A stretch of 64,000 nt of DNA from Candidatus Latescibacterota bacterium (lineage in GTDB: Bacteria; Latescibacterota; UBA2968): positions 4,160,001 to 4,224,000 of the forward strand of contig OZ242311.1 in NCBI GenBank assembly GCA_965207885.1. Reading direction: 5' to 3'. Of this stretch, positions 1 through 59,783 are shown piece after piece (positions within the stretch are counted from its first letter, which is position 1; each line of letters starts with the position of its first letter). The notes under the pieces are model-generated. The model ran no database searches, had not been told where the DNA came from, and worked only from the letters and a program-made list of their open reading frames with translations. A program made the position numbers and the translations under genes.

Positions 1-2
1 TG

Positions 3-983
3 AATTTCTCTGAGAATACAGCGATCCATGAATCTCTGTTTATTGCGCGTCGGTCTGATGCGGAGAAAAAGCCTACCCGATTTATTTCTTTAGGTCGAAT
101 GCCTGCGGATGCTCATGAGGCGATGTTGTTGGCAAATATGATTAACGGTGGCAAAATTTCTGGTGAATGGGGCAGGGAATGTGAATGGCCGTGGGAACGG
201 GTGAGAAACGGTGATTGGCAAGCCGCGTTGTTTTACGATGAGGAACTGGCTGAAGCGTATTACGACCTTGCCGCGCTCAATGGCACGCGACTACAAATTG
301 TTGGCAACGCCTGTGCCATAGAACCGGAGGGACGACGTGTGCGAGACGCTTTTTCTCGTAATTCAAAGTTAGATACCCCCTGGAAAACACCGGTTCTGTG
401 GGATCATCAGACAGATGTCCGTACGACGATGGCTACAAAGCCTGATGTGGTAGCAACACCGAAGCGAGGTAGAGAGAAGTATGCACAGAGTTTGGTAAAG
501 AAAGCCAGCCGATTGGTTATCTCAGGACGGCTTTATACATACGCCGTGCGAACGGCAGCATGTTATACAGAGGAGCCAGTTCTTGGCTCTGCTTGGGTGC
601 CTGTCACCCCACTATCAAAAACACCTCACTTTGAGCACGCGCTGTGTGCGTGGTGGAACTCGACGCCTGGGATACTGACGATGCTTCATGCCAGGTCCAA
701 AAAGTTGACATATCCAGCATATTCTTTGGATCTGCTACGCAAGTTGCTCATCCCCAACCCGCGCAATGTCGATGTCTCCCCGCTCATTGATGTTTTCGCT
801 AAAACCCACCAGCGAGTACTCAAACCTTGGAAAGAGATGGACACCTGTCCTGTACGCGCCCTTATCGACGAAGCAGCAGCACAGGTTCTTCACATAGATG
901 GGGCAAAGATTGCGGACTGGCGCAAGCGGATCACGCTTGAACCTACCGTCTCTAACCGTCCGGCAGTGGAACGTTTTGGCTAA
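3..983 (+). CDS. 3' part of a probable type IIG/IIL restriction-modification enzyme (N6-methyltransferase C-terminal half plus target-recognition region); begins before the window
   Basis: Frame is open from base 3 (NFSENTAIHESLFIARR...), resembling the late motif region of gamma-class N6-MTases; C-terminal 'LCAWWNSTPGIL...LRKLLIPNP' is TRD-like; next to TA and CBASS genes. Confidence 0.6.
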   Translation, partial: NFSENTAIHESLFIARRSDAEKKPTRFISLGRMPADAHEAMLLANMINGGKISGEWGRECEWPWERVRNGDWQAALFYDEELAEAYYDLAALNGTRLQIVGNACAIEPEGRRVRDAFSRNSKLDTPWKTPVLWDHQTDVRTTMATKPDVVATPKRGREKYAQSLVKKASRLVISGRLYTYAVRTAACYTEEPVLGSAWVPVTPLSKTPHFEHALCAWWNSTPGILTMLHARSKKLTYPAYSLDLLRKLLIPNPRNVDVSPLIDVFAKTHQRVLKPWKEMDTCPVRALIDEAAAQVLHIDGAKIADWRKRITLEPTVSNRPAVERFG

Positions 984-1064
984 CTTATTGACAAAAAGTG
1001 GGGCGCCGCACGCCACAGGCATGGCGTAGCCAAAAAACTGGCCAGGCAATTGGAGGATCGAGTT

Positions 1065-1346
1065 ATGGCAGATAATACGACTCGCTGGGATTCAGCAGAG
1101 TACCTCAAAACAGAAGAAGATGTGCGCCTATACCTGGAAGCGTGTCTTGAAGAAGCAGGAGATGACCCCGCCTTTATGGCCCATGCATTAGACGTAATCG
1201 CTCGAGCCAAAAAAAGGATTCTCTTCGAGAGCATCAAACAAGGATTAACAGAGGCGATTGAACACGCGGCAGGCCAGGAAAGTGAGGCGGTTGTGCATTT
1301 CCCACGCACCCCTGATGTAAAATCGAAAAATAAAAAAGCCCGATGA
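1065..1346 (+). pseudogene. Chimeric/truncated addiction-module antitoxin (HI1420-type N-terminus fused to the N-terminus of a second XRE antitoxin; no HTH)
   Basis: 'TTRWDSAEYLKTEEDVRLYLEACLEEAGDDPAFMAHALDVIARAK' is the HI1420-family antidote N-terminus; 'LFESIKQGLTEAIEHA' is typical of another antitoxin N-terminus; GGAGG RBS before ATG 1065. Confidence 0.6.
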
Positions 1347-1366
1347 CCAAATAGGTCCTCGGGCTT
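1336..1366. terminator. Hairpin between convergent genes, probable bidirectional terminator
   Basis: AAGCCCGA-t-GACC-aaata-GGTC-c-TCGGGCTT with an A-tract on the left and a T-rich stretch on the right. Confidence 0.65.
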
Positions 1367-1390
1367 AATAGTTTTGGTTTCATCTATCAG

Positions 1391-1618
1391 CTATATCTCA
1401 GTCAATTCAGGAACATGTTCTTCCTCATATTTCTCAATCAGCACACCAATGACTTCCATCATTGAGGCGAGGGGATGATCTTCATTCTCGCCTACCACAT
1501 CAATCAAATCGTCCAGTATAGCCACAAGCCGTTGATATTCGCTCTCTTCATGGGGGACGAACACAACAGGGGTTAGAACGGGCCATACATCTTGAGCGGT
1601 TTGTATTTCTGCTACCAT
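1391..1618 (-). CDS. higA: HigA-like antitoxin, short form without HTH
   Basis: 'EYQRLVAILDDLIDVVGENEDHPLASMMEVIGVLIEKYEEEH' is the HigA N-terminal signature; directly downstream of higB. Confidence 0.7.
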   Translation of the reverse strand: MVAEIQTAQDVWPVLTPVVFVPHEESEYQRLVAILDDLIDVVGENEDHPLASMMEVIGVLIEKYEEEHVPELTEI

Positions 1619-1621
1619 AAT

Positions 1622-1909
1622 CTACTCTTTCCATTTCCCTCTATCATACTCGTCGTGCGTTAGAACCTCACGAATGTAGATTTTCTGTCGGTTGTAATGT
1701 ATTGCCTCGATAAGACGTGCTTTGTTACCACCAATATTGAAAACGGTTAAATTTTTTACCTGATCAGCATGGGGAAACGCCGTATGCAAATCGACAAACG
1801 AACGAAAATAGCCTCGCTTCATTAATCTATACCAATGTTCGAGTGATACTTTGGTATTGGGATGTCTCTGGGCAAACTCGTTCAAGCGTTTTCGGGTGAT
1901 GATATGCAC
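1622..1909 (-). CDS. higB: HigB-family mRNA interferase toxin
   Basis: '(M)HIITRKRLNEF...FPHADQV...TVFNIGGNKARLI..IHY....IYIREVLTHDEYDRGKWK'; likely GTG start at 1909. Confidence 0.85.
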   Translation of the reverse strand: MHIITRKRLNEFAQRHPNTKVSLEHWYRLMKRGYFRSFVDLHTAFPHADQVKNLTVFNIGGNKARLIEAIHYNRQKIYIREVLTHDEYDRGKWKE

Positions 1910-1988
1910 GGAGTGTCCTGCCGACAAGTTGTTCTATTTGCCTGTACCGAAGGCAGATCGGCATACCGACACAAGCAGGATGGTCAAG

Positions 1989-2489
1989 TCAGAGCATCCG
2001 TAGCCTCATGAGGCGGTAGGTCATCGCCAAGGTGCTCACTTTGAACTTCTCAGCAAGCATTTCAAGAACATCGTCTTCGGTTAGATCAAAGGGCTGTTGA
2101 TAGAAGGCTTCCCTGACCCACTCAGCGGGCATAAGGAGTGCAGCGGCAAATGCATTAGCCGCCATCTCTTCATGCTTGGTGCCGGAACCGGACTCAAGGT
2201 CTCGGAAATGTACATGATACCCCTTATCGATGTACGTATCGCCTTTATGAAGAACAAAGTGGCCGATCTCATGCGCGATGCTAAAGCGTTGCCGGTTGGG
2301 GTGGTGTTCTCGGTTGACACCAATAACAGCGCGGTCCCCGTTACGGACAAGTACCCCCGAACAATCTTCTCCGAGGTCTGCCAACTTGATCTTTATGCCT
2401 AGGTGAGCAGCGACTTGCGCCATAGGAACTGGAGCAGTATTCAGTCCCACATCTGCGAGCAACTGCTCAGCTCTTCTCTCCAACGACAT
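1989..2489 (-). CDS. ImmA/IrrE-family metallopeptidase (CapP-like)
   Basis: 'RQRFSIAHEIGHF' HExxH and 'EMAANAFAAALLMP'; overlaps the upstream XRE gene; divergent from CBASS. Confidence 0.9.
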   Translation of the reverse strand: MSLERRAEQLLADVGLNTAPVPMAQVAAHLGIKIKLADLGEDCSGVLVRNGDRAVIGVNREHHPNRQRFSIAHEIGHFVLHKGDTYIDKGYHVHFRDLESGSGTKHEEMAANAFAAALLMPAEWVREAFYQQPFDLTEDDVLEMLAEKFKVSTLAMTYRLMRLRML

Positions 2490-2844
2490 TATGACTTTCC
2501 TCTACATTACTAGCGATAAAGGAAGTAACTTGCGCTTGGCTTTTTCCTGCCTCCTCCTTCAACCAACCTGTGATTTTAGGCCTTGCGGTCCCAGCTTCGC
2601 TTTTTGGGAATTCATCTCGCGAGGGCAAAAGCAAGCGCATGTCAACATCAAGCGCATCGGCAAGTGCCCAGAGGGTGTGAAGCGTCGGTCGCTGATTTCC
2701 GCTCTCAATATTGGCAATTGATCCTCGAGCAAGGCCACAACGCTGCGCAAGTTGGGTTTGTGTGAGCCCCGCTTCGCGTCGCTTTCGTTCCACCTTCTGC
2801 CCTACGAGTTGGTAGAGCCTCTCTGAGTCAGGTCGCCGTCGCAT
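2467..2844 (-). CDS. XRE-family HTH repressor (CapH-like)
   Basis: 'RREAGLTQTQLAQRCGLARGSIANIESGNQRPTLHTLWALADALDV' Cro/C1 HTH; paired with the peptidase and divergent from the CD-NTase. Confidence 0.88.
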   Translation of the reverse strand: MRRRPDSERLYQLVGQKVERKRREAGLTQTQLAQRCGLARGSIANIESGNQRPTLHTLWALADALDVDMRLLLPSRDEFPKSEAGTARPKITGWLKEEAGKSQAQVTSFIASNVEESHNVVGEKS

Positions 2845-2852
2845 ATATACTT

Positions 2853-2882
2853 TAGATAGGATCTTGAGTATAAAATGTCAAG
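2853..2882 (-). promoter_or_regulatory. Sigma70-type promoter for the XRE/peptidase operon (probably leaderless), overlapped by an inverted repeat
   Basis: Minus strand TTGACA (2881-2876)-N17-TATCTA (2858-2853), 8 nt before ATG; CTTGA-N10-TCAAG at 2863-2882. Confidence 0.55.
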
Positions 2883-2982
2883 CAATAAAAAGCAAACAAG
2901 AGAATCTATATACTTATTAAATGGAATAACAGTGAAAAAGTTTTTAATACAAAGCAGAATTATAATATATACCTTTTATTCA

Positions 2983-3011
2983 TTGACAAAAATATAAGCT
3001 TATACTATACT
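2983..3011 (+). promoter_or_regulatory. Near-consensus sigma70 promoter of the CBASS operon with a palindromic operator candidate
   Basis: TTGACA (2983-2988)-N17-TATACT (3006-3011); perfect palindrome TATAAGCTTATA at 2993-3004. Confidence 0.75.
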
Positions 3012-3216
3012 ATGATCACCGATGCCCAAAGTCTTGCCGTGGGCGGTTGAAGGCAGTTCCGCCACCCGCTTCAGGTATATGGAGACAGGGTCTGTTACGC
3101 AAATCTATTATCTTCAAAGCTGGCGGATGAGACATAAAGAGGATCCCACTCCTCGAAGGGGAAAAACGCCTTCAAGGAGGTGTTAATCTATATATACATA
3201 TTGGAGGCCCTACGTC

Positions 3217-4164
3217 GTGGAATATACAAACCAACAACTCAACAACTATGTCAAACGGATTAAGCTCACTCAAGAAAAAAAATCGTCTTATAAGAGCCAA
3301 ATTGATAATCTGAGGGACAATGTTCGCAAGGCCATAAGCGATATGGAAAACACTAAATTAACAAAGGTCAAAATCGCAGGATCGTGGAGGAAAGGCACTG
3401 CCTTAGCACCAAAAGGAGAATATCCCCTCGATATAGACCTGGTATTCTACTTGGCCCTCGAAGAAGATATTTCCTTTGATGCCGAGGAGCTTCGGGAGGA
3501 GATCATTGACGTATTATGTGAGGCATACCCTACCAAGGAGAGATCAGACTTTACTGATGGGAAAAAAACCATCGGCATTGTGTTCAGAGGGTCTGGCCTT
3601 GAGGTTGATATTGTGCCGTTTATACCAGAAAAAGGTAATACGACTTATGGAAGACAACCAGAAAAAAAACTCAATTCAGGTGAGTTCAAAACCAGCGTCG
3701 ATAAGCAATTGGATTTTACAAAAAAAATAAAATCCAAGTGTTCTAATTTCACTTCCATTGTGCGCATTCTGAAAAGTTGGAAAAATTATAAAGAACTGGA
3801 ACTTTCCTCTTTTTCTCTTGAATTGGCAGTAGCTAAATTGATTGAGGAGGGGAGAATATCTGGTGCTTCAATAAACCAATCAATTATCAATTTTTTCGAG
3901 TTTTTCGGTAATGGTAATCCTGTCGAAGTGTATTTTTCAGGTGCGATTGGACCGCAAACGGGCAATGCACCCTGGATAGCAGATCCAACGAATAATGAGA
4001 ACAATTCGATCAGATTATCTGATAGTGAATGGGATGAAGTCATAGAAGAGGCAGAATGCGGCTTTGAAACTATTTCCTATGCACAAACCGTGCAAGAGAC
4101 TGGAAAAACATTAGACTTATGGAAAGAAGTTTTTGGACCAAGTTTCAATATTAAGGAGGTGTAA
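3217..4164 (+). CDS. CBASS cGAS/DncV-like nucleotidyltransferase (CD-NTase/SMODS)
   Basis: 'GSWRKGTAL...DIDLV...EVDIVP' Pol-beta NTase motifs, 'IADPTNNENN', C-terminal 'WKEVFGPSF'; followed by HORMA and ATPase genes. Confidence 0.93.
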   Translation: MEYTNQQLNNYVKRIKLTQEKKSSYKSQIDNLRDNVRKAISDMENTKLTKVKIAGSWRKGTALAPKGEYPLDIDLVFYLALEEDISFDAEELREEIIDVLCEAYPTKERSDFTDGKKTIGIVFRGSGLEVDIVPFIPEKGNTTYGRQPEKKLNSGEFKTSVDKQLDFTKKIKSKCSNFTSIVRILKSWKNYKELELSSFSLELAVAKLIEEGRISGASINQSIINFFEFFGNGNPVEVYFSGAIGPQTGNAPWIADPTNNENNSIRLSDSEWDEVIEEAECGFETISYAQTVQETGKTLDLWKEVFGPSFNIKEV

Positions 4165-4169
4165 TACCA

Positions 4170-4652
4170 ATGAGCACTATGACACAAACATATACCAGAA
4201 CAGATATCCGTAAAGTTTTTGAAAACTTCCAGGCAGATCTACAAATGCTTGCTGTAAGAACGCGGGCAATGGAATTAGATCATGCACAAGACTGTGCCCA
4301 TGATGTCTGTTTAATGGCTAGAGAAGAGTGCTTGACGCGCGTCCATATACAATTGTATGACTCTTTTGGAAGTCTGGTAAAAGTCCACCGGTATTCCGTG
4401 GAAGAAGATATATTATCAGATTCGCAAAGGCCAGGAGACAATAGATGGCCATGCTTACCTGACGGCACACTACGTGTGATTGTTGAATACTCTGATATAC
4501 AAAAATCGGAAGATCTCAAAAAATCAGGTAAGTTAAAAATTCCTTGGGGTCCCTCATCCTTATCAACCGATTACTCTGGAATGCACAGTAATGGCGGCAG
4601 ACTCTATTCCAGTAATAGCTATGGATTACAGCGCGAAACATTCGTGAACTAA
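4170..4652 (+). CDS. Bacterial HORMA-domain protein (Cap7-like)
   Basis: T/S-rich start 'MSTMTQTYTRTDIRKVFENFQADL' and C-terminal 'RLYSSNSYGLQRETF' typical of CBASS HORMA proteins; lies between CD-NTase and ATPase. Confidence 0.85.
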   Translation: MSTMTQTYTRTDIRKVFENFQADLQMLAVRTRAMELDHAQDCAHDVCLMAREECLTRVHIQLYDSFGSLVKVHRYSVEEDILSDSQRPGDNRWPCLPDGTLRVIVEYSDIQKSEDLKKSGKLKIPWGPSSLSTDYSGMHSNGGRLYSSNSYGLQRETFVN

Positions 4653-4664
4653 ACAGGACAAGAA

Positions 4665-5555
4665 ATGGCACAAGATACGTTTGATACTCAACGAGAACTC
4701 CCATCAAGTGATCTAAAAAATATTGCTGAAACACTTGTCGGCTTCGAGCGGCATTATGAAGCGTTGAAAAACCATCTAACGATAATGTTAATGCCTGATC
4801 ATATAGATAAGTGGAGCAAGCAATACCACAAACAAATTCTTCCATTATGCGAGGTAATCCGACAAAGATATCCACTTTTTCTTTTTAGCGGAGATGTCGG
4901 AACAGGAAAAACCGTTACGGCTGAGTGTGCTGCTGACCGGCTGACAAGAGAAATGAGCAAAGAAGGATTTCTGCTCAAGTTGAGTACCCGCGTGAGAGGT
5001 AAGGGTTTGCATGGAGAAATGAGTCAGCTTATCCAAGACGCTTTTGAAAATTTGACAACTCAAGCAGGCAAAAAACGTCTGTCCTTTCTATTGATAGACG
5101 AGGCAGATTCCATAGCATCTCTTCGATCCACCGAACAGATGCACCAGGAAGAAAAGGCGGCTGTCAACACGCTGATACAGAAAATTGATGAAATTCGCCA
5201 AGTAGGTGGTCGAGCGGTTGTATTTCTGTGTACTAATAGATCAAATGTCATTGATCAAGCTATCGTTAGGCGTGCTGCATTACATATAGAATTTTCTCGA
5301 CCAAATAAAGAAGAATGTATAGAATTACTGACAAATGATCTGCAAGGAGTAGGATTGACATCGCAAGAGCTAAATGAATTAGCATCCTTGATCTCAGGGA
5401 ATGGACAGAAAAAAGAAAATGGTTATTCATTTTCAGATTTTCGGTTGCGATTCCTTCCAGAGGCTCTTGCTCGGGCCTTTCCAGATCAGGCACTAACATT
5501 TGATATTCTAAGAGAAACAGCTTTGGCCGTGAAACCAAGCCCTCGGATTGTCTAA
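4665..5555 (+). CDS. Trip13/Pch2-like AAA+ ATPase (Cap6-like)
   Basis: Walker A 'GDVGTGKT', 'RVRGKGLHGEM' pore loop, Walker B 'LLIDEADS', 'TNR...DQAIVRRA'. Confidence 0.92.
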   Translation: MAQDTFDTQRELPSSDLKNIAETLVGFERHYEALKNHLTIMLMPDHIDKWSKQYHKQILPLCEVIRQRYPLFLFSGDVGTGKTVTAECAADRLTREMSKEGFLLKLSTRVRGKGLHGEMSQLIQDAFENLTTQAGKKRLSFLLIDEADSIASLRSTEQMHQEEKAAVNTLIQKIDEIRQVGGRAVVFLCTNRSNVIDQAIVRRAALHIEFSRPNKEECIELLTNDLQGVGLTSQELNELASLISGNGQKKENGYSFSDFRLRFLPEALARAFPDQALTFDILRETALAVKPSPRIV

Positions 5556-5556
5556 A

Positions 5557-6105
5557 ATGCAAAACAACGATGTTCAATTAAATCAGAAATTGCTCAAAAA
5601 ATTGAGTAAAAAAGCGGACTTTTGCCGATTTTCTCATTCGGAGCTAAAAGAAAAATATACCACCTGTCGAAATTGGAAAGAATTTTCTGTTGTGTTATTG
5701 TCGGTAGTTTCCGCCGCGCTAATCGGTTTTTACTATCGAGGAATATTGGAAGGTGATTGGACATTGTCGCTTATTTTTTGTTTACCTTTTACCATAATGA
5801 TAGTACAGGCACTGGATCACACTGTGTTTCAGTGGACACAGAAAGCAGCACGGCACGAGTCCGCAGTAGCAATTTGGGGGGATTGGATCAGAGAGGCAGA
5901 CTTTCTTGAGCAGCATATCCTTCAGTATTCAAGTGATTTAGTCGATGAAAAGATGCACAACATACAGGAAAAATACAGAAATTGTATGGGTAGTACAGAA
6001 CAAGTACCCAATAGCAAATTCCTAAAATACAAAAAGAAATTCAAAATACAGGTATTGGAATCTAAAAAAATGGATGACATGTCTTTGGAAGATCTAAAAA
6101 AATAA
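5557..6105 (+). CDS. Two-transmembrane CBASS effector, SLATT-like
   Basis: Two hydrophobic helices (FSVVLLSVVSAALIGFYY; WTLSLIFCLPFTIMIVQAL) flanked by 'FSH' and 'AARHESA' and a charged helical tail; starts 1 nt after the ATPase stop. Confidence 0.7.
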   Translation: MQNNDVQLNQKLLKKLSKKADFCRFSHSELKEKYTTCRNWKEFSVVLLSVVSAALIGFYYRGILEGDWTLSLIFCLPFTIMIVQALDHTVFQWTQKAARHESAVAIWGDWIREADFLEQHILQYSSDLVDEKMHNIQEKYRNCMGSTEQVPNSKFLKYKKKFKIQVLESKKMDDMSLEDLKK

Positions 6106-6120
6106 AATAACGTTTCAGAT

Positions 6121-6669
6121 ATGGCTATCCCAAATCCTCTCATTAAATTTACTTACGATGACTACCTGAATACGCCCGAAGACAAGCGTTATGAACTTCT
6201 GGACGGGGATTTAGTTGCGCTCTCTTCACCGGAAGAATTTCATCAACGTGTTTCCATCCTATTAGGGACGAAATTGGTTCAGTTCGCAGTTGAAAATCGC
6301 CTGGGGAGGGTCTATCACACGCCCTTCGACGTGGTGCTGTCGGATATGGACGTGGTGCAGCCCGATCTGATCTTCGTCTCCAATGAACGCGCCGATATCA
6401 TCACCCCTGCGAATATTCAGGGCGCGCCGGACCTCGTCGTCGAAATCCTATCTCCTTCCACAGCCGCACGCGATAAGACCATCAAGCGCAGTCTATATGC
6501 CAGGCACGGCATAACCGAGTACTGGATGGTCGATCTAACCGAAAAAACCATAACGGTTCTGCGTCTCGGCGAGCGCGGATTCGAGGTTGTCGATACCTAC
6601 GGCGAAGGGGAAATATTGACTTCGCCCACATTGCAAGGATTCACTTTGAGCCTCGGCGACATATTTTAA
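6121..6669 (+). CDS. Uma2-family (DUF820) putative endonuclease
   Basis: 'RYELLDG...HQ...VVQPDLIFV...GAPDLVVEILSPST...DK..KR.LYARHGITEYWMVD'. Confidence 0.92.
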   Translation: MAIPNPLIKFTYDDYLNTPEDKRYELLDGDLVALSSPEEFHQRVSILLGTKLVQFAVENRLGRVYHTPFDVVLSDMDVVQPDLIFVSNERADIITPANIQGAPDLVVEILSPSTAARDKTIKRSLYARHGITEYWMVDLTEKTITVLRLGERGFEVVDTYGEGEILTSPTLQGFTLSLGDIF

Positions 6670-6806
6670 GACAGCCTTGACAACATTAAAAAGTTCGGCT
6701 ATTTTGCAATCCCACTGCAAAATAGCCGCTTTTTTCTACCCCAAATGTATATTACCCGCACTCTTGAATCCTTTGTCGCATCTTCTCAATTTCCCTTCTC
6801 ATCTTA

Positions 6807-7766
6807 ATGATACCCGACCTCTTACCCCTAAAACCCTACCTCCGCGAAACCGTCTGGGGAGGGCGCAGCCTGGGGACACACTACAACAAAGCACTTCCCC
6901 CGGATGTACCCATTGGCGAATCGTGGGAAGTCTCGGCATACAAAGGGATGGAAAGCATTGTCGCAGACGGTCCCCTTGCCGGACAAAACCTCGCCGACCT
7001 CGTCGCAATTTACGGCGCAGACCTCCTCGGACAGCGCGTTATCCAGCGTTATGGCACTGAATTCCCATTGCTCATCAAATTCCTCGATGCACGCGACGAC
7101 CTCTCCATCCAGGTACACCCCGACGACACCTATACCCGTACAGAAAACCTGGGCACCTATGGCAAAACAGAAGCGTGGTACATACTCAAATCAGACCAGG
7201 GGCGCGTGGCTTGTGGCCTGAAAGACGGCGTAGATAAACACAGCTTGAAATTATCCATCCGCGAAAACCGCGTACAGGACACCGTGCAATTCTTCGATGT
7301 ACAGGAAGGCGATGTAATCTTTGTACCGCCCGGCACAGTACACGCCCTGTGCCAGAACGTCATGATCTACGAAGTACAACAATCCAGCGACCTCACCTTT
7401 CGCATCTACGACTACAACCGCCCCGGCACCGACGGCAAGCCGCGCGAACTGCACATTGACCGCGCCCTCGACGTCATCGCCTTTGACGCACCCGCGCCAG
7501 AACCGCGGAACTCACGTCACGAGGCAAACGCCACACTCATCGGAGCAGAAGACACCGAATACTTCCGTCTCGAACGCTTCGCCCCTGCTGGCATCGTCCA
7601 GCACGCCTATCCCACATTTGCGGCACTCACCGTCCTCGCCGGTCAAGCCCAATTAAACAAAACCTTCACCGCTCAAACAGGCGATACCTTCTTCATCCCG
7701 GCCAATCGCACCGTCACCGTCTCACCAGAAGAAAACGTGGAATATTTAATCTCATCCTGTGGGTAG
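6807..7766 (+). CDS. manA: Type I mannose-6-phosphate isomerase
   Basis: 'VWGG...GESWE...FPLLIKFLDA...LSIQVHP...KTEAW...PGTVHA...EVQQSSDLTFRIYDY'. Confidence 0.9.
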   Translation: MIPDLLPLKPYLRETVWGGRSLGTHYNKALPPDVPIGESWEVSAYKGMESIVADGPLAGQNLADLVAIYGADLLGQRVIQRYGTEFPLLIKFLDARDDLSIQVHPDDTYTRTENLGTYGKTEAWYILKSDQGRVACGLKDGVDKHSLKLSIRENRVQDTVQFFDVQEGDVIFVPPGTVHALCQNVMIYEVQQSSDLTFRIYDYNRPGTDGKPRELHIDRALDVIAFDAPAPEPRNSRHEANATLIGAEDTEYFRLERFAPAGIVQHAYPTFAALTVLAGQAQLNKTFTAQTGDTFFIPANRTVTVSPEENVEYLISSCG

Positions 7767-7770
7767 ATCG

Positions 7771-8037
7771 CTAAACCTGTGCTTCGCCGTAGAGGTCAAT
7801 GCGGGCGCGGAGGGAGGGTTTGATGAAAACATCATCGAGGGGCAATTGGGAAAAGGCGTGTGCGAGAATATCCACCTGCGTGGGCACATCGAGGCGGTAA
7901 TCGAGAATCAGGCGCTGTTCGCCGCGCACGACACACAGGCCACCGGTACCCCCCATGAGATCTTCGCGAAATAAGGGAATATTCAGGCGATGGGCAAGGG
8001 CTTCAAATTCTTGCAGAAGCTGGGAATCGGTCATCAT
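7771..8037 (-). CDS. Small hypothetical protein
   Basis: Compact ORF 'MMTDSQLLQEFEALAHRLNI...GGLCVVRGE...LAHAFSQLPLDDVFIKPSLR'; the ORF-track start at 8058 lies inside the IS. Confidence 0.65.
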   Translation of the reverse strand: MMTDSQLLQEFEALAHRLNIPLFREDLMGGTGGLCVVRGEQRLILDYRLDVPTQVDILAHAFSQLPLDDVFIKPSLRARIDLYGEAQV

Positions 8038-8048
8038 ATAAAAATTGG

Positions 8049-9246
8049 CATGGTACACGACAAAACTTAAATTGTTTTAAACAGTGGCGGATTACTCAGT
8101 AAACGAATGCATATGAGGAACTGTTGGGTTTGTTGGTTTATATTGAGCAGGACATACTGCAAATAGTCCAACCCATATCGGAAGAGACTTTTCTCCATCC
8201 GCCCGTGATTTTTGATCGTCAAAGGATTTGTTTTTGCTATCCATTCGCCGATGATATGCGCCCAGATGCAGGCAATGGCCAAAAGCGCGATGAGTTTCTC
8301 AATGCGGTCTTGATGTATAAGATGGGTCTCTTCCAGATTAAATCCTCGACTTTTAAGATTGGCAAAAAGGACTTCAATGCCCCATCGTTTTTTATAGGTA
8401 TCCAATGCGGCTTGACCTTTTTGGTTGCTGGCAAGAATGAGGTATTGGTCCTTCAATCTTAGTGCAGACAGATATACAGGCAGGTCATAAACGCGGTGGC
8501 GTTTGCACAAGTTGACCTGCTGATGGATATTAAGATTTTCAAACCGTTTTCTTATGGGGATCTCTCTACCGCCTGATGAGACAAGAGCGTTTTCCTTGAT
8601 GCGAATAACAAAGGGTATATTTTGTGTGTCTAACCACCTAAACCATTCTCTTCCAATAAATTCTCTGTCTGCGACGACAACGCGGATATGCGATTTGCAG
8701 ATGCAGTTGAGCATTTCTTGCATCAAATGGATACGCTCATCACTATTGGAATTGCCCCGTTTTTTTAACAAGTGCCAACAGATAGGAAAGGCGACCCCTT
8801 CATAGATAATGCCTGCGGTTAGGATGTTGATATTGAATTTTCCCAACTTCCAATTGGTGCGATCTATTGAGACTATAAAATCCGACTTTATAGGTAATAA
8901 GTGCAAGATCAATTGTCTCACACACGCATAGGGTAAGGCAAAGTGGGCAAAGAAGCGTTGGATACGACGATAATTAGATTTCTGCTTGACGGTTCCATTG
9001 AGTGCGTTTGCCAGTTTCATAAAATTGACGCTACGCAATTTTATCAGCGACAATATGAACGCAGCGGTAAACGTTATTCGGGCTTTATGCCAGTGAAAAT
9101 ATCCTTGCATAATCGTTTGAAGTTCAATAGTTTCAGGAGACATAGACCTGTGCCTTGTTAAGATGAGAAAGGTTTGTCTTGGGACATTCAAACCTAACTC
9201 TTTTTAGCTTTTTTCACAGGTCTTTTATTTTTTGTCGTGTACTATG
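8049..9246 (-). mobile_element. IS4-family insertion sequence, copy 1 (1198 bp)
   Basis: 17-bp terminal IRs CATGGTACACGACAAAA / CATAGTACACGACAAAA; 9-bp target duplication AAAAATTGG (8040-8048, 9247-9255). Confidence 0.95.
8067..9143 (-). CDS. IS4-family DDE transposase
   Basis: 'IDRTNWKLG','ADREFIG','Y..RWGIEVLFANLKSRGFNLEETH' (YREK-like); likely start MSPETIEL. Confidence 0.93.
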   Translation of the reverse strand: MSPETIELQTIMQGYFHWHKARITFTAAFILSLIKLRSVNFMKLANALNGTVKQKSNYRRIQRFFAHFALPYACVRQLILHLLPIKSDFIVSIDRTNWKLGKFNINILTAGIIYEGVAFPICWHLLKKRGNSNSDERIHLMQEMLNCICKSHIRVVVADREFIGREWFRWLDTQNIPFVIRIKENALVSSGGREIPIRKRFENLNIHQQVNLCKRHRVYDLPVYLSALRLKDQYLILASNQKGQAALDTYKKRWGIEVLFANLKSRGFNLEETHLIHQDRIEKLIALLAIACIWAHIIGEWIAKTNPLTIKNHGRMEKSLFRYGLDYLQYVLLNINQQTQQFLICIRLLSNPPLFKTI

Positions 9247-9347
9247 AAAAATTGGGAAAGAAACTGGAGAAAAGTCACATCTGATATTTGCAAATATAGC
9301 GAAAAAAAAGAAATGCACAACCGGATCGGCGAAGGTCGGTCCAGTTT

Positions 9348-10940
9348 TTATGAAAGAATATGCTCTTTGATATATTCTTTCAGGGCAGATAACGTATTTG
9401 CATCCCCCGGCAAGAGCGGGAGGCCACCGATTCCATAAGACAGACTGGTATAAAAAGCGTGGGTCTGGTACGCGGAATCCACCTGAGCGGGAAACAGGAC
9501 AACGGCACTTTTGAGAATGCGTTGAAAATCTGTATCTATCACCTGCCCAATAGCGTCCCGATAAGCGTGCATCTTATCAATATCTTCGCGCATGGGAATC
9601 CACGTCCCATTGTAATCTTCGCGGCGATATTTAGCGTCAAATGCATAAATAGCGCGTTCCCCTTTCGAGTTGTTGATCTCGATAATCATATCGGGCCTCA
9701 GATCATGGGTGAGCGCGCGTCCCGACGAGGTAGTATAAGTCATATTGTAGAGACAACGAATGCGGCGCTCACCGCGCTGAAGATATATCGCAGAGGATTC
9801 GCCCTGCGCGGGAGAAACGCTCAAACCGCGGTTGGTCAGGTGAAAAAGGTTATCATCGCGGATCGGAACAAAGCCGATATCGCACAAAGTGTGAACGAGC
9901 GTAAAATAGACCCAGTATTCGTAAAGCGCGTGTGTATCGCGAAAGGACAGATCAAATGGGCCACCCGTACAGGGCGCGAGCGCGCAGTTGAGATCTCGGA
10001 TAAGCGCAAAAGCCGTCTGGTAACGCACATCGACATGAACGGGCAAAGCGTCATCGCGTCGCGCAGGTGGCAAAGGGAGCAAACGCAAGCAGCGATCCAC
10101 GTATATTTTCAGGCGATGTCCCAAATCGGTATGTGCAATAGATCTCGCGCGCAGTGACAGACGCTTTAAGCGTGCAACGAGATGGCGATTGAGCGATGTA
10201 TCAATATCGGAATGGCGATGGGTCTCGCGCAAATGCGTACAGACGACATCGTCCGCTATAGGCAAATGCGGGAGATCAGTCTCGCTATGCGTCCAGAATT
10301 GTGGCGAGCGAATCATATCGACAATCGCATCGGGGTCGCGGCCCTGTGCGCGATCAACCGCGCGGATGTGTTGAACGGTTTTGAGATGGCGATGCGGACG
10401 TTTGAGTATCGCATGCAAAGTGCGGACGAGTTGATTCAAAAGACGATCCAGCACTTGATGAAAATCTAAATTGCTACCCTTATCATCTGTCAGACGCGTT
10501 GAGATACGAGTTTGATCGGGCAAAAGGTAAACGAGTTCGCGGCTGATGCGCTCGAGATCGGCGCGCATGATTTGATAATCGGTTTCGTAGTCGAGATGCG
10601 AGGGACGCACATCGAGTTCGGCATAGAGCAGATCGACATTATCTGAGCGAATACAAAAACGGATATGCCCCGGATGATCGCCCGTAGCGAGCCGCCCCCA
10701 CAGCGCGTGCCCGTCGCGGAGAAAACCAAGGGTCTCGACGGGTTGATCGTCGATATAGACCGAAATATCTTTCTCATTGAGCGGACGAATGAGGCAGTTG
10801 CATTCAGTAGCTTCAACCAGATGATCAGCAATTACATTACCTTGCACGGGAGAGAGCAAAATGCGGGCATAATCATTTTCCGCAACAAGACCATCGGATG
10901 TTTTCGAAAAGGAAGCGCGGATGTGTTGACCTGAGTCCAT
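9348..10940 (-). CDS. DUF2357 + PD-(D/E)XK nuclease (McrC-like)
   Basis: 'LYEYWVYF','LRPDMII','FDAKYR','EDIDKMHAYRDAI','IGGLPLLPG'. Confidence 0.85.
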   Translation of the reverse strand: MDSGQHIRASFSKTSDGLVAENDYARILLSPVQGNVIADHLVEATECNCLIRPLNEKDISVYIDDQPVETLGFLRDGHALWGRLATGDHPGHIRFCIRSDNVDLLYAELDVRPSHLDYETDYQIMRADLERISRELVYLLPDQTRISTRLTDDKGSNLDFHQVLDRLLNQLVRTLHAILKRPHRHLKTVQHIRAVDRAQGRDPDAIVDMIRSPQFWTHSETDLPHLPIADDVVCTHLRETHRHSDIDTSLNRHLVARLKRLSLRARSIAHTDLGHRLKIYVDRCLRLLPLPPARRDDALPVHVDVRYQTAFALIRDLNCALAPCTGGPFDLSFRDTHALYEYWVYFTLVHTLCDIGFVPIRDDNLFHLTNRGLSVSPAQGESSAIYLQRGERRIRCLYNMTYTTSSGRALTHDLRPDMIIEINNSKGERAIYAFDAKYRREDYNGTWIPMREDIDKMHAYRDAIGQVIDTDFQRILKSAVVLFPAQVDSAYQTHAFYTSLSYGIGGLPLLPGDANTLSALKEYIKEHILS

Positions 10941-11019
10941 TGTTCGCGTAGATTTCAAAAGGGTTTGTCTTCAACCATTTTACGGAGGTCGCCTGCAGTA
11001 GTAAATATAAGGAGGAGTT

Positions 11020-11658
11020 GTGATTCGTGCAATTTTGTGGGATAACGATGGGGTGCTGGTAGATACCGAAGGTCTGTACTTTCAGGCAGGACATGAGGTA
11101 TTGGCAACACAAGGAGTGGAACTAACGCATAAAGATTTTGCCGAACAGTCGCTACAAAAAGGGCTTAGCGTATTCGATTTTCTGCCCGATCAAAATGCCG
11201 AATTGATTGAGGAACTGCGCTTGAAACGCAATGCGCGATACAGCGCCTTATTAGCTGAAGGCGTGCAGGTCGTGGATGGCGTAATAGAAACACTCGAAAC
11301 ATTCCATGGCCGCGTACAAATGGGCATTGTAACGGGTTCTCGCAGAGATCACTTTGACATTGTTCACGCAAAGACGGATTTACTCCCATTCTTCGATTTT
11401 GTGCTGGCAAGAGAAGATTACGAAGAAGCAAAACCACATCCAGATGCGTATTTGAAGGCCATGCGATTGCACGGACTACAACCCGATGACTGTGTAGTTG
11501 TGGAAGATTCTGAACGCGGATGTGTCGCGGCAGCAGCGGCTGGTTTGCGCGTACTCGCCGTGCCAAATGCCTTATCGAAATACGGAGATTTTTCATCTGC
11601 GTATAAAATACTGAACTCGGTGCGAGATGTCGTAGAGGAGATAGAGAAGTTGGATTGA
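11020..11658 (+). CDS. HAD-superfamily hydrolase (IA variant 3)
   Basis: 'WDNDGVLVDTE','KPHPDAY','VVEDSERG'. Confidence 0.9.
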   Translation: MIRAILWDNDGVLVDTEGLYFQAGHEVLATQGVELTHKDFAEQSLQKGLSVFDFLPDQNAELIEELRLKRNARYSALLAEGVQVVDGVIETLETFHGRVQMGIVTGSRRDHFDIVHAKTDLLPFFDFVLAREDYEEAKPHPDAYLKAMRLHGLQPDDCVVVEDSERGCVAAAAAGLRVLAVPNALSKYGDFSSAYKILNSVRDVVEEIEKLD

Positions 11659-11670
11659 AAAGGATAAAAT

Positions 11671-11695
11671 GTAGGGGCGACTCTCGTGGTCGCCC
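11671..11695 (+). repeat. GTAG-type REP-like palindrome
   Basis: GTAG followed by hairpin GGGCGAC-tctcgtg-GTCGCCC in an intergenic gap. Confidence 0.65.
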
Positions 11696-11727
11696 GCACA
11701 CTTAACAAACAAAATGAGGTATGTGTG

Positions 11728-13800
11728 ATGAGTGAATTAAAAAACAATCCCCTGCTGGTCAAAGAGGGATTGCCGAGGTACGACGAAATTGAGCCAAAGC
11801 ACGTTGTACCGGGCGTAAAACATATGCTATCAGAAGCAGAGAAACAGATTGCGGCATTGGAGCAAAACATGACCCCATCGTGGAATGGGTTGCTCGTCCC
11901 GCTCGAAGAACTCGACGTGCCCTTTTCTTATGCCTGGGGACCAGTGGGCCATTTGCTCAGCGTAAAAAATTCCGATGACTTGCGCGAAGCACACGAGGTA
12001 GTCCTGCAAGACGTCGTGGCATTTGGTCTGCGCGTGCAGCAAAGCCGTCCCATTTACGAAGGCCTGGTGGCAATTCGAGACGGCGAGGAATGGGCAAAGA
12101 TAGATGAGGCTCAAAAGCGATGTATCGATCTGAAAATTCGCGCAGCCGAACACGCCGGAGTGGGATTAGAAGGCACAGCAAAAGAACGCTTTAATGAAAT
12201 CGCCAAAGAATTGTCGCAAATTAGTACAGATTTTTCCAATCATGTACTGGATGCGACCAAAGCCTATGAACTAATTATTGAAAATAAAAAAGATATAGAA
12301 GACTGGCCGAACAGTTTGCGACAAGTAGCCGCACAATCTTATGCACAGGCCAATGAAGGCAGCGAAGCCACACCGGAAAATGGTCCCTGGCGTATTACAC
12401 TGGATTTCCCGAGCTTTTATCCCTTTATGCAACACCACCGCGTGCGCGACCACCGCGAGCAAGTTTACAAAGCATATATCCAGCGCGCATCCTCTGGCGA
12501 ATGGGACAACAGCAAATTGATAGCACGCACCTTAAAATTGCGCAAAGAGCAATCTGCACTCCTGGGTTTTGAGACCTATGCTGACAGGAGCCTGAATGTC
12601 AAAATGGCCCCCGATGTAGCATCTGTCGAGCGCATGATCGGTGAATTGCAAGCGGCTTCGCAGCCCCATAGCGAAAAGGATTTCGGCGCGCTGGAAGCAC
12701 TGGCAAAGGCAAGTGGTCAGGAAGAGCCAGTCATGCACTGGGATACGTCCTTCTGGTCAGAGCGGTTGCGCGAGCAAAAATTCGATTATACCGACGACCA
12801 GTTGCGCCCTTATTTCCCGCTACCCAAAGTACTCGATGGCATGTTTGCATTGGCAGAACGCCTTTTTGATATTGAGATCGCGCGGGCAGATGATGAAAAC
12901 GCGCACAAATGGCATGAAGATGTGCAATTCTTCAAAGTACTCCGCGATGGCGAGCGCATAGCATCGTTTTATCTGGACCCCTATTCGCGTCCAGCAGAAA
13001 AGCGTGGTGGCGCGTGGATGAACGACTGTCTGGGACGGCGATGGCTCAACGGCGAACTTCGCTTGCCCGTAGTACATCTCGTGTGCAATGGCACGCCGCC
13101 CGTGGGTGACACGCCATCGCTGATGAGTTTTTCAGAAGTGGAAACCCTGTTTCACGAGTTTGGACACGGATTGCAGGGCATGTTGACGACCGTTGATTAT
13201 GCCGATGTGGCGGGATTGCACGGTGTGGAATGGGATGCCGTGGAAATTGCCAGCCAGTTCATGGAAAACTGGTGTTATCAAAAACCCACACTAATTGGAA
13301 TGACCGCACACGTAGAAACGGATGAACCCTTGCCAGATGACCTGTTTGAGAAAATCGTCGCCGCGCGCACATTTCAGGCGGGGTCTTTGATGATGCGCCA
13401 GTTGTCCTTTGGAAAAACAGACATACTGCTGCATTCCACCTACGATCCAGATGGCGGTGAAACGGCTTTTGATGTAGAGCGCAGGGTAACCGAAGAAATG
13501 TCCGTATTGCCCCCCCTGCCAGAAAGTCGCTTCTTGTGCTCATTTTCCCATATTTTTGCCGGAGGCTATGCCGCCGGGTATTACAGCTACAAATGGTCAG
13601 AGGTATTGAGCGCAGATGCATTCGGCGCATTTGAAGACGCCGGACTGGATGACGAAGAAGCCGTGAAAGCAACCGGACGCAAATTCCGCGACACAATTCT
13701 CGCACTGGGCGGCAGCAAACATCCTATGGATGTGTACCGAGAATTTCGCGGGCGAGAACCGAGCACAGAGGCATTGCTGCGGCACAATGACCTGTTGTAA
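11728..13800 (+). CDS. prlC: Oligopeptidase A (M3 family)
   Basis: 'NNPLL','KRGGAWM','LFHEFGHGL','WDAVEIASQFMENW','GGYAAGYYSYKWSEVLSAD'. Confidence 0.93.
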   Translation: MSELKNNPLLVKEGLPRYDEIEPKHVVPGVKHMLSEAEKQIAALEQNMTPSWNGLLVPLEELDVPFSYAWGPVGHLLSVKNSDDLREAHEVVLQDVVAFGLRVQQSRPIYEGLVAIRDGEEWAKIDEAQKRCIDLKIRAAEHAGVGLEGTAKERFNEIAKELSQISTDFSNHVLDATKAYELIIENKKDIEDWPNSLRQVAAQSYAQANEGSEATPENGPWRITLDFPSFYPFMQHHRVRDHREQVYKAYIQRASSGEWDNSKLIARTLKLRKEQSALLGFETYADRSLNVKMAPDVASVERMIGELQAASQPHSEKDFGALEALAKASGQEEPVMHWDTSFWSERLREQKFDYTDDQLRPYFPLPKVLDGMFALAERLFDIEIARADDENAHKWHEDVQFFKVLRDGERIASFYLDPYSRPAEKRGGAWMNDCLGRRWLNGELRLPVVHLVCNGTPPVGDTPSLMSFSEVETLFHEFGHGLQGMLTTVDYADVAGLHGVEWDAVEIASQFMENWCYQKPTLIGMTAHVETDEPLPDDLFEKIVAARTFQAGSLMMRQLSFGKTDILLHSTYDPDGGETAFDVERRVTEEMSVLPPLPESRFLCSFSHIFAGGYAAGYYSYKWSEVLSADAFGAFEDAGLDDEEAVKATGRKFRDTILALGGSKHPMDVYREFRGREPSTEALLRHNDLL

Positions 13801-20816: not shown

Positions 20817-21123
20817 TGTGTGAATTGATCCAGACAATGATACTCGTAAGGATAAACGCAGGCGTCTATTGAGTGCGCCTGTGTGACGGCGGAGGGCCTG
20901 TATTGGGTTGGCAAACCTGTGGCCCTCCCGCCGCAGAATACATACAGAGACAGTTACGGTTTGGTAGTCGTAACTTGCTCTATTTGAAAATGTAAAGTTT
21001 TACAACCACTAAATCAAGTTGCATTTCTATCCAGAAGAGAGGGTAGAAGATGCCACACAAATCCTGTTGATTTTTCTCGCAGTCAGTCAAGCAGGGCTTG
21101 ATTTTTCACATAAAGGAGGAGGT

Positions 21124-58697: not shown

Positions 58698-59783
58698 ATG
58701 GACAGACGCAAACGCTTCTTCTCGCCTTATGAATCTATTTTTGCGTGGATGCGGGCGACAAAATCCGAACTAACTTTTGATGGACAGACTGTGGATGACT
58801 GGCGTCTGTGGCGTCGAAAATTCCGCGCGCGATTGACGAAAAATCTGGGACCAATGCCAGAACGCGTGCCCCTTCGGGCAGAAGTGCTACGCCGGGACGA
58901 CATGGGCGATTACGTGCGCGAAAAAGTCGCGTTTGACACAGAGCAGTTTGCCAGTGTCCCCGCATTTGTACTGGTGCCAAAGGGACTGAAGCGCGGCGAA
59001 AAGCGTCCGGGGATTCTGGCGGCACACGGCCATGGAATAGGCAAAAATCCACTCGTGGGTTTGGACGCAGATGAAAAGCCACACGAGGATTATCAGAAGC
59101 AGTTGGGTATCCAACTCGTGCAGCGAGGCTATGTGGTCATCGCACCGGATTGGCGCGGATTTGGCGAGCGGATGAGCCCCGAAGATTGGGTGCGCCAAAC
59201 GCGCGACAAGTGCAACGTAAATTACATGGCAGAAGGGTATCGCGGATATCACCTTTTGGCATTGCAAATCTGGGATGGGTTTCGCACACTGGATTATTTA
59301 CAGGCGCGCCGAGAAGTGAATGAAAAGCGAATCGGGTGTTTGGGCGTGTCATTTGGCGGCACAATGACGACCTATTTGACCGCTCTGGATCAGCGGATCA
59401 AATGCGCGTGTATCAGCGGATATCTCAGCACATTGCGAGAAGGCGCGATGCCCGGAAGAGCAAATTTTTGCGGTGCGCAATATATGCCGGGGTTGATGGC
59501 GATCGGCGATATTTCCGATGTTGCGGGTTTGATCGCGCCACGACCTCTGGTCGTGGAGATGGGCGAACGCGATCCGGGCTTTCAAATCGCAGATGCTGAA
59601 CGGGCATTTCGCCACCTGTCAAAAATCTATCGCGCGGCAGATGCACGCGATCAGTTGGTAAAAGATCGATTTGATGGGGTCCACGAATTTAGTGGCCACA
59701 AGTGTTTGGATATATTTGATAAATATCTGCATGGTACACGACAAAACTTAAATTGTTTTAAACAGTGGCGGATTACTCAGTAA
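58698..59783 (+). CDS. Alpha/beta hydrolase (dienelactone hydrolase-like); C-terminus altered by IS insertion
   Basis: 'HGHG','GVSFGG' nucleophile elbow, 'LIAPRPL','GVHEF'. Confidence 0.88.
   Translation: MDRRKRFFSPYESIFAWMRATKSELTFDGQTVDDWRLWRRKFRARLTKNLGPMPERVPLRAEVLRRDDMGDYVREKVAFDTEQFASVPAFVLVPKGLKRGEKRPGILAAHGHGIGKNPLVGLDADEKPHEDYQKQLGIQLVQRGYVVIAPDWRGFGERMSPEDWVRQTRDKCNVNYMAEGYRGYHLLALQIWDGFRTLDYLQARREVNEKRIGCLGVSFGGTMTTYLTALDQRIKCACISGYLSTLREGAMPGRANFCGAQYMPGLMAIGDISDVAGLIAPRPLVVEMGERDPGFQIADAERAFRHLSKIYRAADARDQLVKDRFDGVHEFSGHKCLDIFDKYLHGTRQNLNCFKQWRITQ

Follow-up and report, generated by a model that had tools for sequence, protein, structure and literature searches.

In the type III antiphage signaling system based on cyclic oligonucleotides (CBASS) of Escherichia coli MS115-1, the regulatory genes capH and capP accompany genes for the cyclase CdnC, the HORMA protein Cap7, the Trip13 ATPase Cap6, and the nuclease NucC, in that order. 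CapH is reported to be a repressor that is cleaved by CapP once CapP has been activated by single-stranded DNA (ssDNA), and the same source reports capH/capP with CBASS of types I to III, tabulated by effector, including two-transmembrane (2TM) effectors (10.1101/2022.04.27.489752). SLATT4, SLATT6, and 2TM proteins are listed as CBASS effector classes (PMC12480259), and type I operons with SLATT6 effectors are reported to protect E. coli by at least 10,000-fold (10.1101/2023.05.21.541620). Here we describe a locus with the gene layout of the MS115-1 system in a 64,000-nucleotide stretch of DNA from a Candidatus Latescibacterota bacterium (assembly GCA_965207885.1, contig OZ242311.1, positions 4,160,001 to 4,224,000 of the forward strand). 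The whole stretch is referred to as the window, and positions are counted from its first letter. In the place of NucC, the locus encodes a 182-aa SLATT-type membrane protein. Judged from its sequence, the region is an intact antiphage operon of six genes, in which a type III CBASS combines a small membrane effector of two helices with a switch made up of a repressor and a peptidase. It is likely that this type III CBASS is an abortive-infection operon that was acquired horizontally and is intact.

The sequence-only reading of the window had proposed six tightly coupled genes that make up a complete type III CBASS under capH/capP-like control. All six open reading frames (ORFs) were recovered at the same positions, the four core genes on the plus strand and the two regulatory genes divergent on the minus strand, and each has a PADLOC match. 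The cyclase matches the PADLOC cyclase model PDLC00808 (2.4e-77) and the NCBIfam model CBASS_cyclase_a (2.7e-75; 253 bits, above the cut-off of 200). Its closest PDB chain is CdnC of E. coli MS115-1 (6p80, 3.9e-20, full-length alignment), and the active-site residues are kept (G55-S56, D72-x-D74, and D131), the GS, DxD, and D motifs aligning with those of 6p80. The HORMA protein is recognized by Pfam bacHORMA_1 (1e-28) and by PADLOC HORMA PDLC00886 (2.2e-38); a sequence search of the PDB gave no match to it at E ≤ 0.01. Trip13 matches PADLOC TRIP13 (8.6e-106) and, in the PDB, Pch2 of Rhizobiales (6pb3, 4.9e-50) and the MS115-1 protein (6p8v, 5.1e-48), and its translation contains a Walker A motif (GDVGTGKT) and a Walker B motif (LLIDEAD). 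By homology in Pfam, PADLOC, and NCBIfam, the gene set of a type III CBASS is complete, with a CD-NTase, one HORMA protein, Trip13, and an adjoining gene for a predicted effector.

To place the effector among its relatives, one genome per species was scanned with an effector profile, which gave 24 loci. These loci span Latescibacterota, Binatia, Nitrospirales, Arenicellales and other Gammaproteobacteria, Opitutales, Bdellovibrionales/Oligoflexia, and Oxydemutatoraceae. The sequence-only reading had staked its proposal on the effector being conserved next to homologous cyclases. Trip13 and HORMA lie immediately 5' of the effector in all 24 loci, and the cyclase precedes them in 23; in the remaining locus, L010, the contig begins inside HORMA. 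The proposal withstood this check. The cyclase is full length in 21 of the 24. Because the effector constantly occurs with Trip13, HORMA, and the cyclase, it is considered to be the conserved effector of the system, and the four-gene cassette is kept together in at least eight bacterial lineages. Compared with the window proteins, the related proteins have a median identity of 80% for Trip13, 79% for the cyclase, 69% for HORMA, and 66% for the effector, which evolves fastest. The pairwise distances of the four proteins correlate (Spearman rho 0.58 to 0.90 over 19 rows), and kinship alone gives some correlation of this kind.

The G+C content of the cassette is below that of both flanks in 18 of 20 loci, with L015 and L022 as the exceptions, and the genes upstream of the cassette vary from locus to locus (for example, restriction-modification, toxin-antitoxin, RecQ, and GlnE genes). 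The low G+C content and the differing upstream neighbors indicate, therefore, that the cassette moves as a unit. The only conserved companions of the cassette are regulator genes. On this gene content, the 2TM protein is the only candidate effector of a mobile four-gene unit.

Within the window (Table 1), the core genes are separated by 5 nt (cyclase to HORMA), 12 nt (HORMA to Trip13), and 1 nt (Trip13 stop to effector), and capP and capH overlap by 23 nt. The effector ORF could begin at 5548, giving 185 aa, or at the ATG at 5557, giving 182 aa; its relatives use the position that corresponds to 5557. All six ORFs are full length, they are 83 to 96% identical to their counterparts in the related locus L001, and ribosome-binding and promoter signals were found. 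The locus had been described as more AT-rich than its flanks. This holds for the intergenic region and the four core genes, to which the low G+C content (0.37 to 0.42) is confined, but not for capP (0.523) and capH (0.529), which are at the level of the flanks; the G+C content of the whole window is 0.493.

Table 1. Predicted features of the CBASS locus, in window positions
Feature	Position	Strand	Size and remarks
capP-like Zn metallopeptidase, short form	1989..2489	-	166 aa
capH-like XRE/HTH repressor	2467..2844	-	125 aa
AT-rich intergenic control region, common to both gene sets	2845..3216		372 nt, G+C 0.371
CD-NTase, CdnC-like	3217..4164	+	315 aa, GTG start
Single HORMA protein, Cap7-like	4170..4652	+	160 aa
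Trip13/Pch2-like AAA+ ATPase, Cap6-like	4665..5555	+	296 aa
Putative stand-alone 2TM effector, SLATT_4/5 type	5557..6105	+	182 aa

The effector was matched by PADLOC CBASS Effector "2TM" models at 2.8e-14 (PDLC00681) and 5.2e-10. Its hydropathy indicates two hydrophobic segments, TM1 (residues 43 to 62) and TM2 (68 to 90), with a short acidic loop between them. Because the N terminus is rich in lysine and arginine, both ends are expected to lie in the cytoplasm (N-in/C-in). An AF2 model based on 33 relatives (pLDDT 86.6, pTM 0.70) contains helices only and no beta strand. In the model an N-terminal cytosolic helix is continuous with TM1, TM2 extends into a cytosolic helix, and two further helices follow. 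No SAVED, STING, or beta-barrel family was matched in Pfam, PADLOC, or NCBIfam, nor can a SAVED, STING, CARF, or beta-barrel sensor be discerned in the model, which leaves no room for one. Among 1.84 billion representatives, 99 were retrieved with the profile at E ≤ 1e-3, and 98 of these relatives are 87 to 229 aa long; the sole long relative is an archaeal flagellar protein in which 47 residues were matched. A word-index search for longer, fused relatives of the effector found none, which is weak evidence by the method's own rating, and a tblastn search of phage and plasmid collections with the effector gave no match. The description of the effector as a SLATT-type 2TM protein that is helical, stands alone, and lacks a SAVED, STING, or beta-barrel sensor was thus borne out by the family libraries, the helix-only model, and the lengths of its relatives.

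The assignment to SLATT rests on several comparisons. The NCBIfam model SLATT_4 was matched over its whole profile by all 33 family members, the best at 2.1e-10. Pfam was run on 87 of the 99 profile relatives, three known close members and nine fragments shorter than 160 aa being left out, and SLATT_4 and/or SLATT_5 was found in 27 of the 87, in 6 of these above the gathering score. When the family profile was aligned by hhalign with 25 of those 27 SLATT_4/5 relatives, the probability was 99.8% (E 3e-30, 176 columns), a link that is transitive rather than independent because the SLATT set was recruited by the same family profile. Three motifs, KAE..R..HS.L, H..A, and IP(N/D)..FLK.K, are common to the family and the SLATT_4/5 relatives. 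In the ESM Atlas, 28 of the 30 nearest clusters are SLATT_4 clusters, and a fold search of BFVD returned 14 viral proteins at E ≤ 1e-3, half of which (7/14) are annotated as SLATT. These comparisons identify the effector as a distant member of SLATT_4/5 that falls below the curated cut-offs and is nearer to SLATT_4/5 than to SLATT_6. The effector fold also recurs in giant-virus proteins annotated as SLATT, among them those of Fadolivirus, Marseillevirus, Klosneuvirus, and Pyramimonas orientalis virus.

The cytosolic helices of the effector are more conserved than its transmembrane helices. Positions with at least 90% conservation account for 18 of the 33 residues in helix 91-123 and 4 of the 5 in the 147-151 linker, as against 5 of 20 in TM1 and 6 of 23 in TM2. 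Among the residues of the cytosolic helices, R24, H27, E29, W107, G108, R112, Y140, P151, F155, and K159 are invariant. Four copies of the effector folded together reached an ipSAE of 0.54 (median of three runs), whereas the best of three controls reached 0.00. The 0.54 mark is attained by 20 of 30 proteins solved as one-chain pairs and by 1 of 23 solved as single chains, counts that are approximate for the four-copy fold because the calibration was made with two copies and a different alignment. Contact agreement among the four-copy runs was at least 88%, with partner pLDDT of at least 79. The predicted contacts place TM2 and helices 4 and 5 of one copy against TM1, the N-helix, and helix 3 of the next. 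Each copy has two distinct contact faces, and the geometry would therefore fit an open, extendable array or a ring-shaped one. The four-copy fold supports self-association of the effector in prediction and has no bearing on a ligand.

Comparison with other described systems sets these features in context. CBASS of the SLATT4/SLATT6 class, such as EcCdnF04-SLATT6, likewise join a CD-NTase to a stand-alone helical 2TM effector with no separate sensor. However, the SLATT6 operons that have been tested are type I systems with clade F cyclases and neither HORMA nor Trip13, whereas the window locus is type III and its effector is SLATT_4/5-like. Cap15/OptE proteins (S-2TM-beta) are described as cyclic-nucleotide-regulated two-pass effectors that oligomerize in the inner membrane (PMC12657218). 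In contrast, the model of the window effector has no beta strand, and no fused, longer relatives of it were found. A plasmid of Hymenobacter tibetensis (NZ_CP094671.1) carries a cyclase that matches the same model, PDLC00808, with HORMA and Trip13 in the order seen in the window and a "2TM" effector next; identity to the window proteins is 39% for the cyclase and 51% for Trip13. The H. tibetensis effector belongs to another 2TM family, of 269 aa (PDLC00675, which also matches RTasNUDIX), and this difference shows effector swapping on one type III core.

The novelty that the sequence-only reading implied was overstated. The PADLOC 2TM models match the effector, and the SLATT4, SLATT6, and 2TM classes as well as capH/capP control are reported in the publications cited above. 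Type III CBASS, effectors of the SLATT/2TM kind, and control by capH/capP have each been catalogued, and their combination is not new in kind. A literature search, with the defining catalogues and supplementary tables outside its range, found no paper in which a SLATT effector is tested within a type III system.

The two divergent genes upstream of the cyclase were assigned, as first proposed, to a regulator pair of the CapH/CapP type. CapH matches Pfam HTH_3 (1.3e-16), PADLOC capH (3e-10) and HTH_VI (9e-12), and the CapH HTH domain in the PDB (7t5u, 1.4e-5). CapP matches Pfam Peptidase_M78 (4e-24), with HEIGH as its HExxH motif (H73-E74-I-G-H77), and PADLOC capP (2e-38). By these matches and by its position upstream of and divergent from the core genes, which is the published arrangement, the pair is a putative capH/capP module.

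CapP of the window differs in size from the solved CapP of Thauera, which has peptidase, HTH, and GAF domains (10.1101/2022.04.27.489752). The 166-aa window protein covers only positions 4 to 153 of the 242 in the PADLOC profile, and the solved chain (7t5t, 291 aa) aligns with it only at chain residues 88 to 177. In its AF2 model (pLDDT 86.5) the protein fits onto the N-terminal portion of both IrrE/PprI and CapP, and Foldseek matched the model to IrrE/PprI at 4.5e-7 and to 7t5t at 9.6e-7 (TM score 0.68 by query and 0.42 by target). Over IrrE/PprI and CapP together, the TM scores range from 0.64 to 0.68 by query and from 0.42 to 0.47 by target. A search for relatives of CapP gave 1407 proteins at E ≤ 1e-10, and the best 120 are all 144 to 186 aa long. 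Because these relatives are equally short, the window CapP is regarded as a conserved short form rather than a truncation, in agreement with its earlier description as a minimal, ImmA-sized peptidase. In Thauera CapP, Cys113 is the switch residue. The aligned residue in the window protein is V93, so that, as read from the alignment, there is no cysteine at the position of the cysteine switch.

The intergenic region contains signals that may serve this regulator pair. The best promoter of the neighborhood in a promoter scan is a sigma-70-like site, TTGACA-17-TATACT, on the plus strand at 2983-3011 (11 of 12 positions); between it and the GTG start at 3217 there is a leader of about 200 nt. The box AATAmAAAGCr occurs twice in the intergenic region, at 2884-2894 and at 2946-2956, the second directly upstream of the -35 element. 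The 64-kb window contains these 2 occurrences where 0.14 would be expected, and 0 of 100 shuffles reached 2, the pattern having been derived post hoc. The capH-type intergenic regions of the window, L001, L005, L011, and L014 were aligned, with L009 left out, and the two boxes and the -35 element are kept in all five. We infer that the boxes are candidate CapH operators; the CapH site of E. coli is reported to lie likewise upstream of its -35 element (10.1101/2022.04.27.489752). A riboswitch or structured leader was considered and dropped: Rfam gave no match on positions 1 to 12000 at E ≤ 1, and the 199-nt leader folds in no unusual way (z -0.65). In L001 as in the window (3166-3216), a AAGGAGGTG ribosome site, about 40 extra nucleotides, and a second GGAGG come in this order ahead of the GTG start. 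In the loci described next, a ribosome site of the AAGGAGGTG kind stands immediately before the cyclase start.

The related loci are divided by their regulators. Homologues of capH/capP lie upstream and divergent in only 5 of the 24 (L001, L005, L009, L011, and L014), and the gene beyond capP differs in the four of these other than L001. The other 19 (L002-L004, L006-L008, L010, L012, L013, L015-L024) have instead a gene for a WYL protein of 272 to 286 aa, on the same strand and about 0 to 25 nt after the effector (for example, L002:7567-8406). Six of the WYL genes were scanned and all six matched WYL (Pfam WYL at 1e-9 to 1e-11, PADLOC WYL at 1e-14 to 3e-18); the assignment of the other 13 comes from clustering by blastp. 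One regulator module, capH/capP or WYL, is present in every locus, and none of the 24 has both. No WYL remnant was found by tblastn in the window or in the five capH/capP loci, where there was only a 30-residue chance match with an E value of 8. In a tree of Trip13, all but one of the six capH/capP rows group together (support 88/91). The regulator label requires two changes on this tree, possibly one, compared with a mean of 5.5 after shuffling, and none of 500 shuffles was as low. The tree was midpoint rooted, and a direction of regulator exchange is not claimed. These patterns show that the capH/capP pair is optional for the cassette, and the related loci offer a natural example of regulator exchange on an unchanged core.

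WYL proteins of this kind recall CapW (wHTH-WYL-WCX). However, published capW is described as "consistently found upstream ... on the opposite strand" (PMC9122588), whereas the WYL gene of the related loci is downstream and on the same strand; the window has no such gene. About 100 nt 5' of the cyclase, the WYL-type loci share a conserved AT-rich promoter block (for example, L006:4547-4659). The block consists of CTTGA, an ATTATGA-TAG-TCATAAT-like palindrome that overlaps a -10-like TATGAT, a second ATAGTC repeat, and a GGAG ribosome site. This block is a candidate for the operator of the WYL protein; for CapW, binding to palindromes over the -10 element is reported.

A working cycle for the window locus can be proposed by analogy with the MS115-1 system and the capH/capP work, gene identity and linkage being taken from the sequence. 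CapH on the shared promoter would hold expression of the operon low. A cue of damage or infection would make CapP active, CapH would be cleaved, and expression would rise. A phage-derived peptide bound by HORMA would turn the cyclase on, and Trip13 would remove HORMA and keep the system quiet. The product of the cyclase would be a cyclic oligonucleotide signal, probably, as for CdnC of E. coli, a cyclic trinucleotide of the cAAA type. Acting on the cytosolic helices of the effector, the signal would bring about a head-to-tail oligomer, by which the inner membrane would be breached and the infected cell killed.

Of the steps of this cycle, direct sensing of a nucleotide by the helices of the SLATT protein has the least support. 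The view of SLATT proteins as nucleotide-responsive pore formers is a 2015 prediction, as cited in PMC7159879. We put forward tentatively, with more doubt than confidence, that the cytosolic helices of this SLATT subfamily (helix 91-123 together with the one at the N terminus and the two at the C terminus) might be a new kind of receptor for cyclic oligonucleotides that has no Rossmann-like, STING, or beta-barrel fold. A ligand at or near the head-to-tail interface would drive formation of a membrane-breaching ring. Separately, a CapP that lacks GAF and HTH domains would sense a cue other than the ssDNA sensed by full-length CapP.

Several observations weigh against the preferred reading and its working cycle. 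No nucleotide-binding fold or motif is recognizable in the effector. Foldseek searches of the PDB with the effector model gave no hit at E ≤ 1e-3, only generic coiled coils, and the best result of a PDB sequence search was a 48-residue match to an unrelated protein at E 0.051. NCBIfam SLATT_4 scores the effector at 31.9 bits (1e-7), under the cut-off of 55 bits, and Pfam has no family for the effector and showed no SLATT match in the 33 family members at E ≤ 1. Invariant residues are weakly enriched at the predicted oligomer interface (10 of 21, compared with 63 of all 182 residues), and the oligomer model therefore indicates no ligand pocket. All relatives come from uncultured, metagenome-assembled genomes. 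The window CapP lacks the HTH and GAF domains present in the solved CapP. Activation by ssDNA was reported for CapP of E. coli MS115-1 and was tied tentatively to GAF, so that the mechanism is not simply transferable to the window protein. In addition, capP of E. coli is reported to be dispensable for protection against lambda (10.1101/2022.04.27.489752).

One alternative, which we consider unlikely, is that the locus is a CBASS in which the 2TM protein does not read the nucleotide itself and its gating is indirect, through a membrane factor of the host, through the complex of HORMA and cyclase, or through a holin-like dose after de-repression. It would explain an effector without a recognizable ligand-binding domain, and the occurrence of a repressor module in every related locus, whether capH/capP (5 of 24) or WYL (19 of 24), suggests that the level of expression matters. 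A 2026 preprint on DRT10 also treats SLATT signal detection as an open question (10.64898/2026.04.29.721553). However, the cyclase keeps its catalytic residues in the window and its full length in most of the related loci, which would be pointless if there were no receiver for its product, and the other conserved genes are regulators only. The best-conserved part of the effector is its cytosolic helices, and their motifs are common to the wider SLATT_4/5 relatives.

Two further explanations concern whether the 2TM protein, or the locus as a whole, does what is proposed, and we give each very little weight. The 2TM protein might have only an accessory role in the membrane, as does the 3-TM protein Cap19 of E. 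coli upec-117, with killing done by another gene. A type III CBASS with a required transmembrane protein beside a separate effector is described in PMC9122588, and in the window a Uma2-family gene (6121-6669), which matches the PADLOC candidate PDC-S03 (7e-40), begins 15 nt past the effector. Yet, apart from the window, Uma2 comes after the cassette in L001 alone (1 of the 24 related loci), the cassette has no other effector-like gene as a conserved neighbor, and it is the 2TM protein that matches the PADLOC models of CBASS effectors. Uma2 was rejected as the true effector on account of this distribution. It is just as improbable that the locus is a silent or decaying passenger of a defense island that no longer works. 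Some relatives are broken, with a split cyclase in L018, a split effector in L024, and a frameshifted HORMA gene and truncated effector in L019, and an insertion sequence (IS) element lies 2 kb from the locus. Nevertheless, the six frames of the window are full length and close in identity to those of L001, their catalytic motifs are intact, and ribosome-binding and promoter signals are in place. An intact CBASS with the 2TM protein as its effector therefore remains the preferred reading.

As an annotation the locus is routine, and its value is as material for the question of how SLATT proteins, in which no sensor is recognizable, detect their signal, described as "a central open question" in the DRT10 preprint (10.64898/2026.04.29.721553). 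SLATT proteins occur in CBASS, in reverse-transcriptase defense systems, and in giant viruses. The subfamily found here would suit work on them: the protein is compact, its cytosolic helices are strongly conserved, it occurs strictly with one cyclase lineage, and both its monomer and its oligomer are predicted with confidence.

Damage to the related cassettes takes different forms. About 1.5 kb interrupts the cyclase of L018 (3440-4946), and about 1.3 kb interrupts the effector of L024 (5721-7001). In L019, HORMA is frameshifted (5964-5976), the effector is truncated, and the WYL gene is split (7456). Other defense-related genes are found beside some cassettes. A second, divergent cyclase of the SMODS/DncV-like type adjoins the cassette of L012 (3499-4617, minus strand), and a ThsB-TIR gene with an 8xMP membrane protein adjoins that of L002 (2057-2954, plus strand).

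On the other side of capP, the window encodes a HigB-like toxin (1391-1927, minus strand) that matches HigB_toxin (3e-28) and PADLOC PD-Lambda-2_A (6e-22) and has a 75-aa partner. HigBA was considered as a part of the CBASS unit, given its PADLOC assignment to PD-Lambda-2_A/B, and was rejected because it adjoins capP only in the window and in L001; the toxin and its partner are a separate toxin-antitoxin module. The Uma2-family, nuclease-like gene downstream of the effector is on the plus strand and matches Pfam at 8e-37, and in L001 about 530 nt lie between the cassette and Uma2. Two genes for DDE (IS4-like) transposases, at 8067-9191 and 59748-60872, both on the minus strand, encode proteins identical at 374 of 374 residues and lie in the same orientation about 50 kb apart. 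A 536-aa protein with DUF2357 and a PD-(D/E)XK nuclease, restriction-like in character, is encoded next to an IS copy (9348-10958, minus strand). The DUF2357 nuclease, the CBASS, HigBA, and Uma2 together suggest a small defense island. Farther along the window, at 21019-23307 on the plus strand, is a gene for a 762-aa protein that consists mostly of leucine-rich repeats (LRR_4, 5e-56), a eukaryote-like protein that is unusual for a bacterium.

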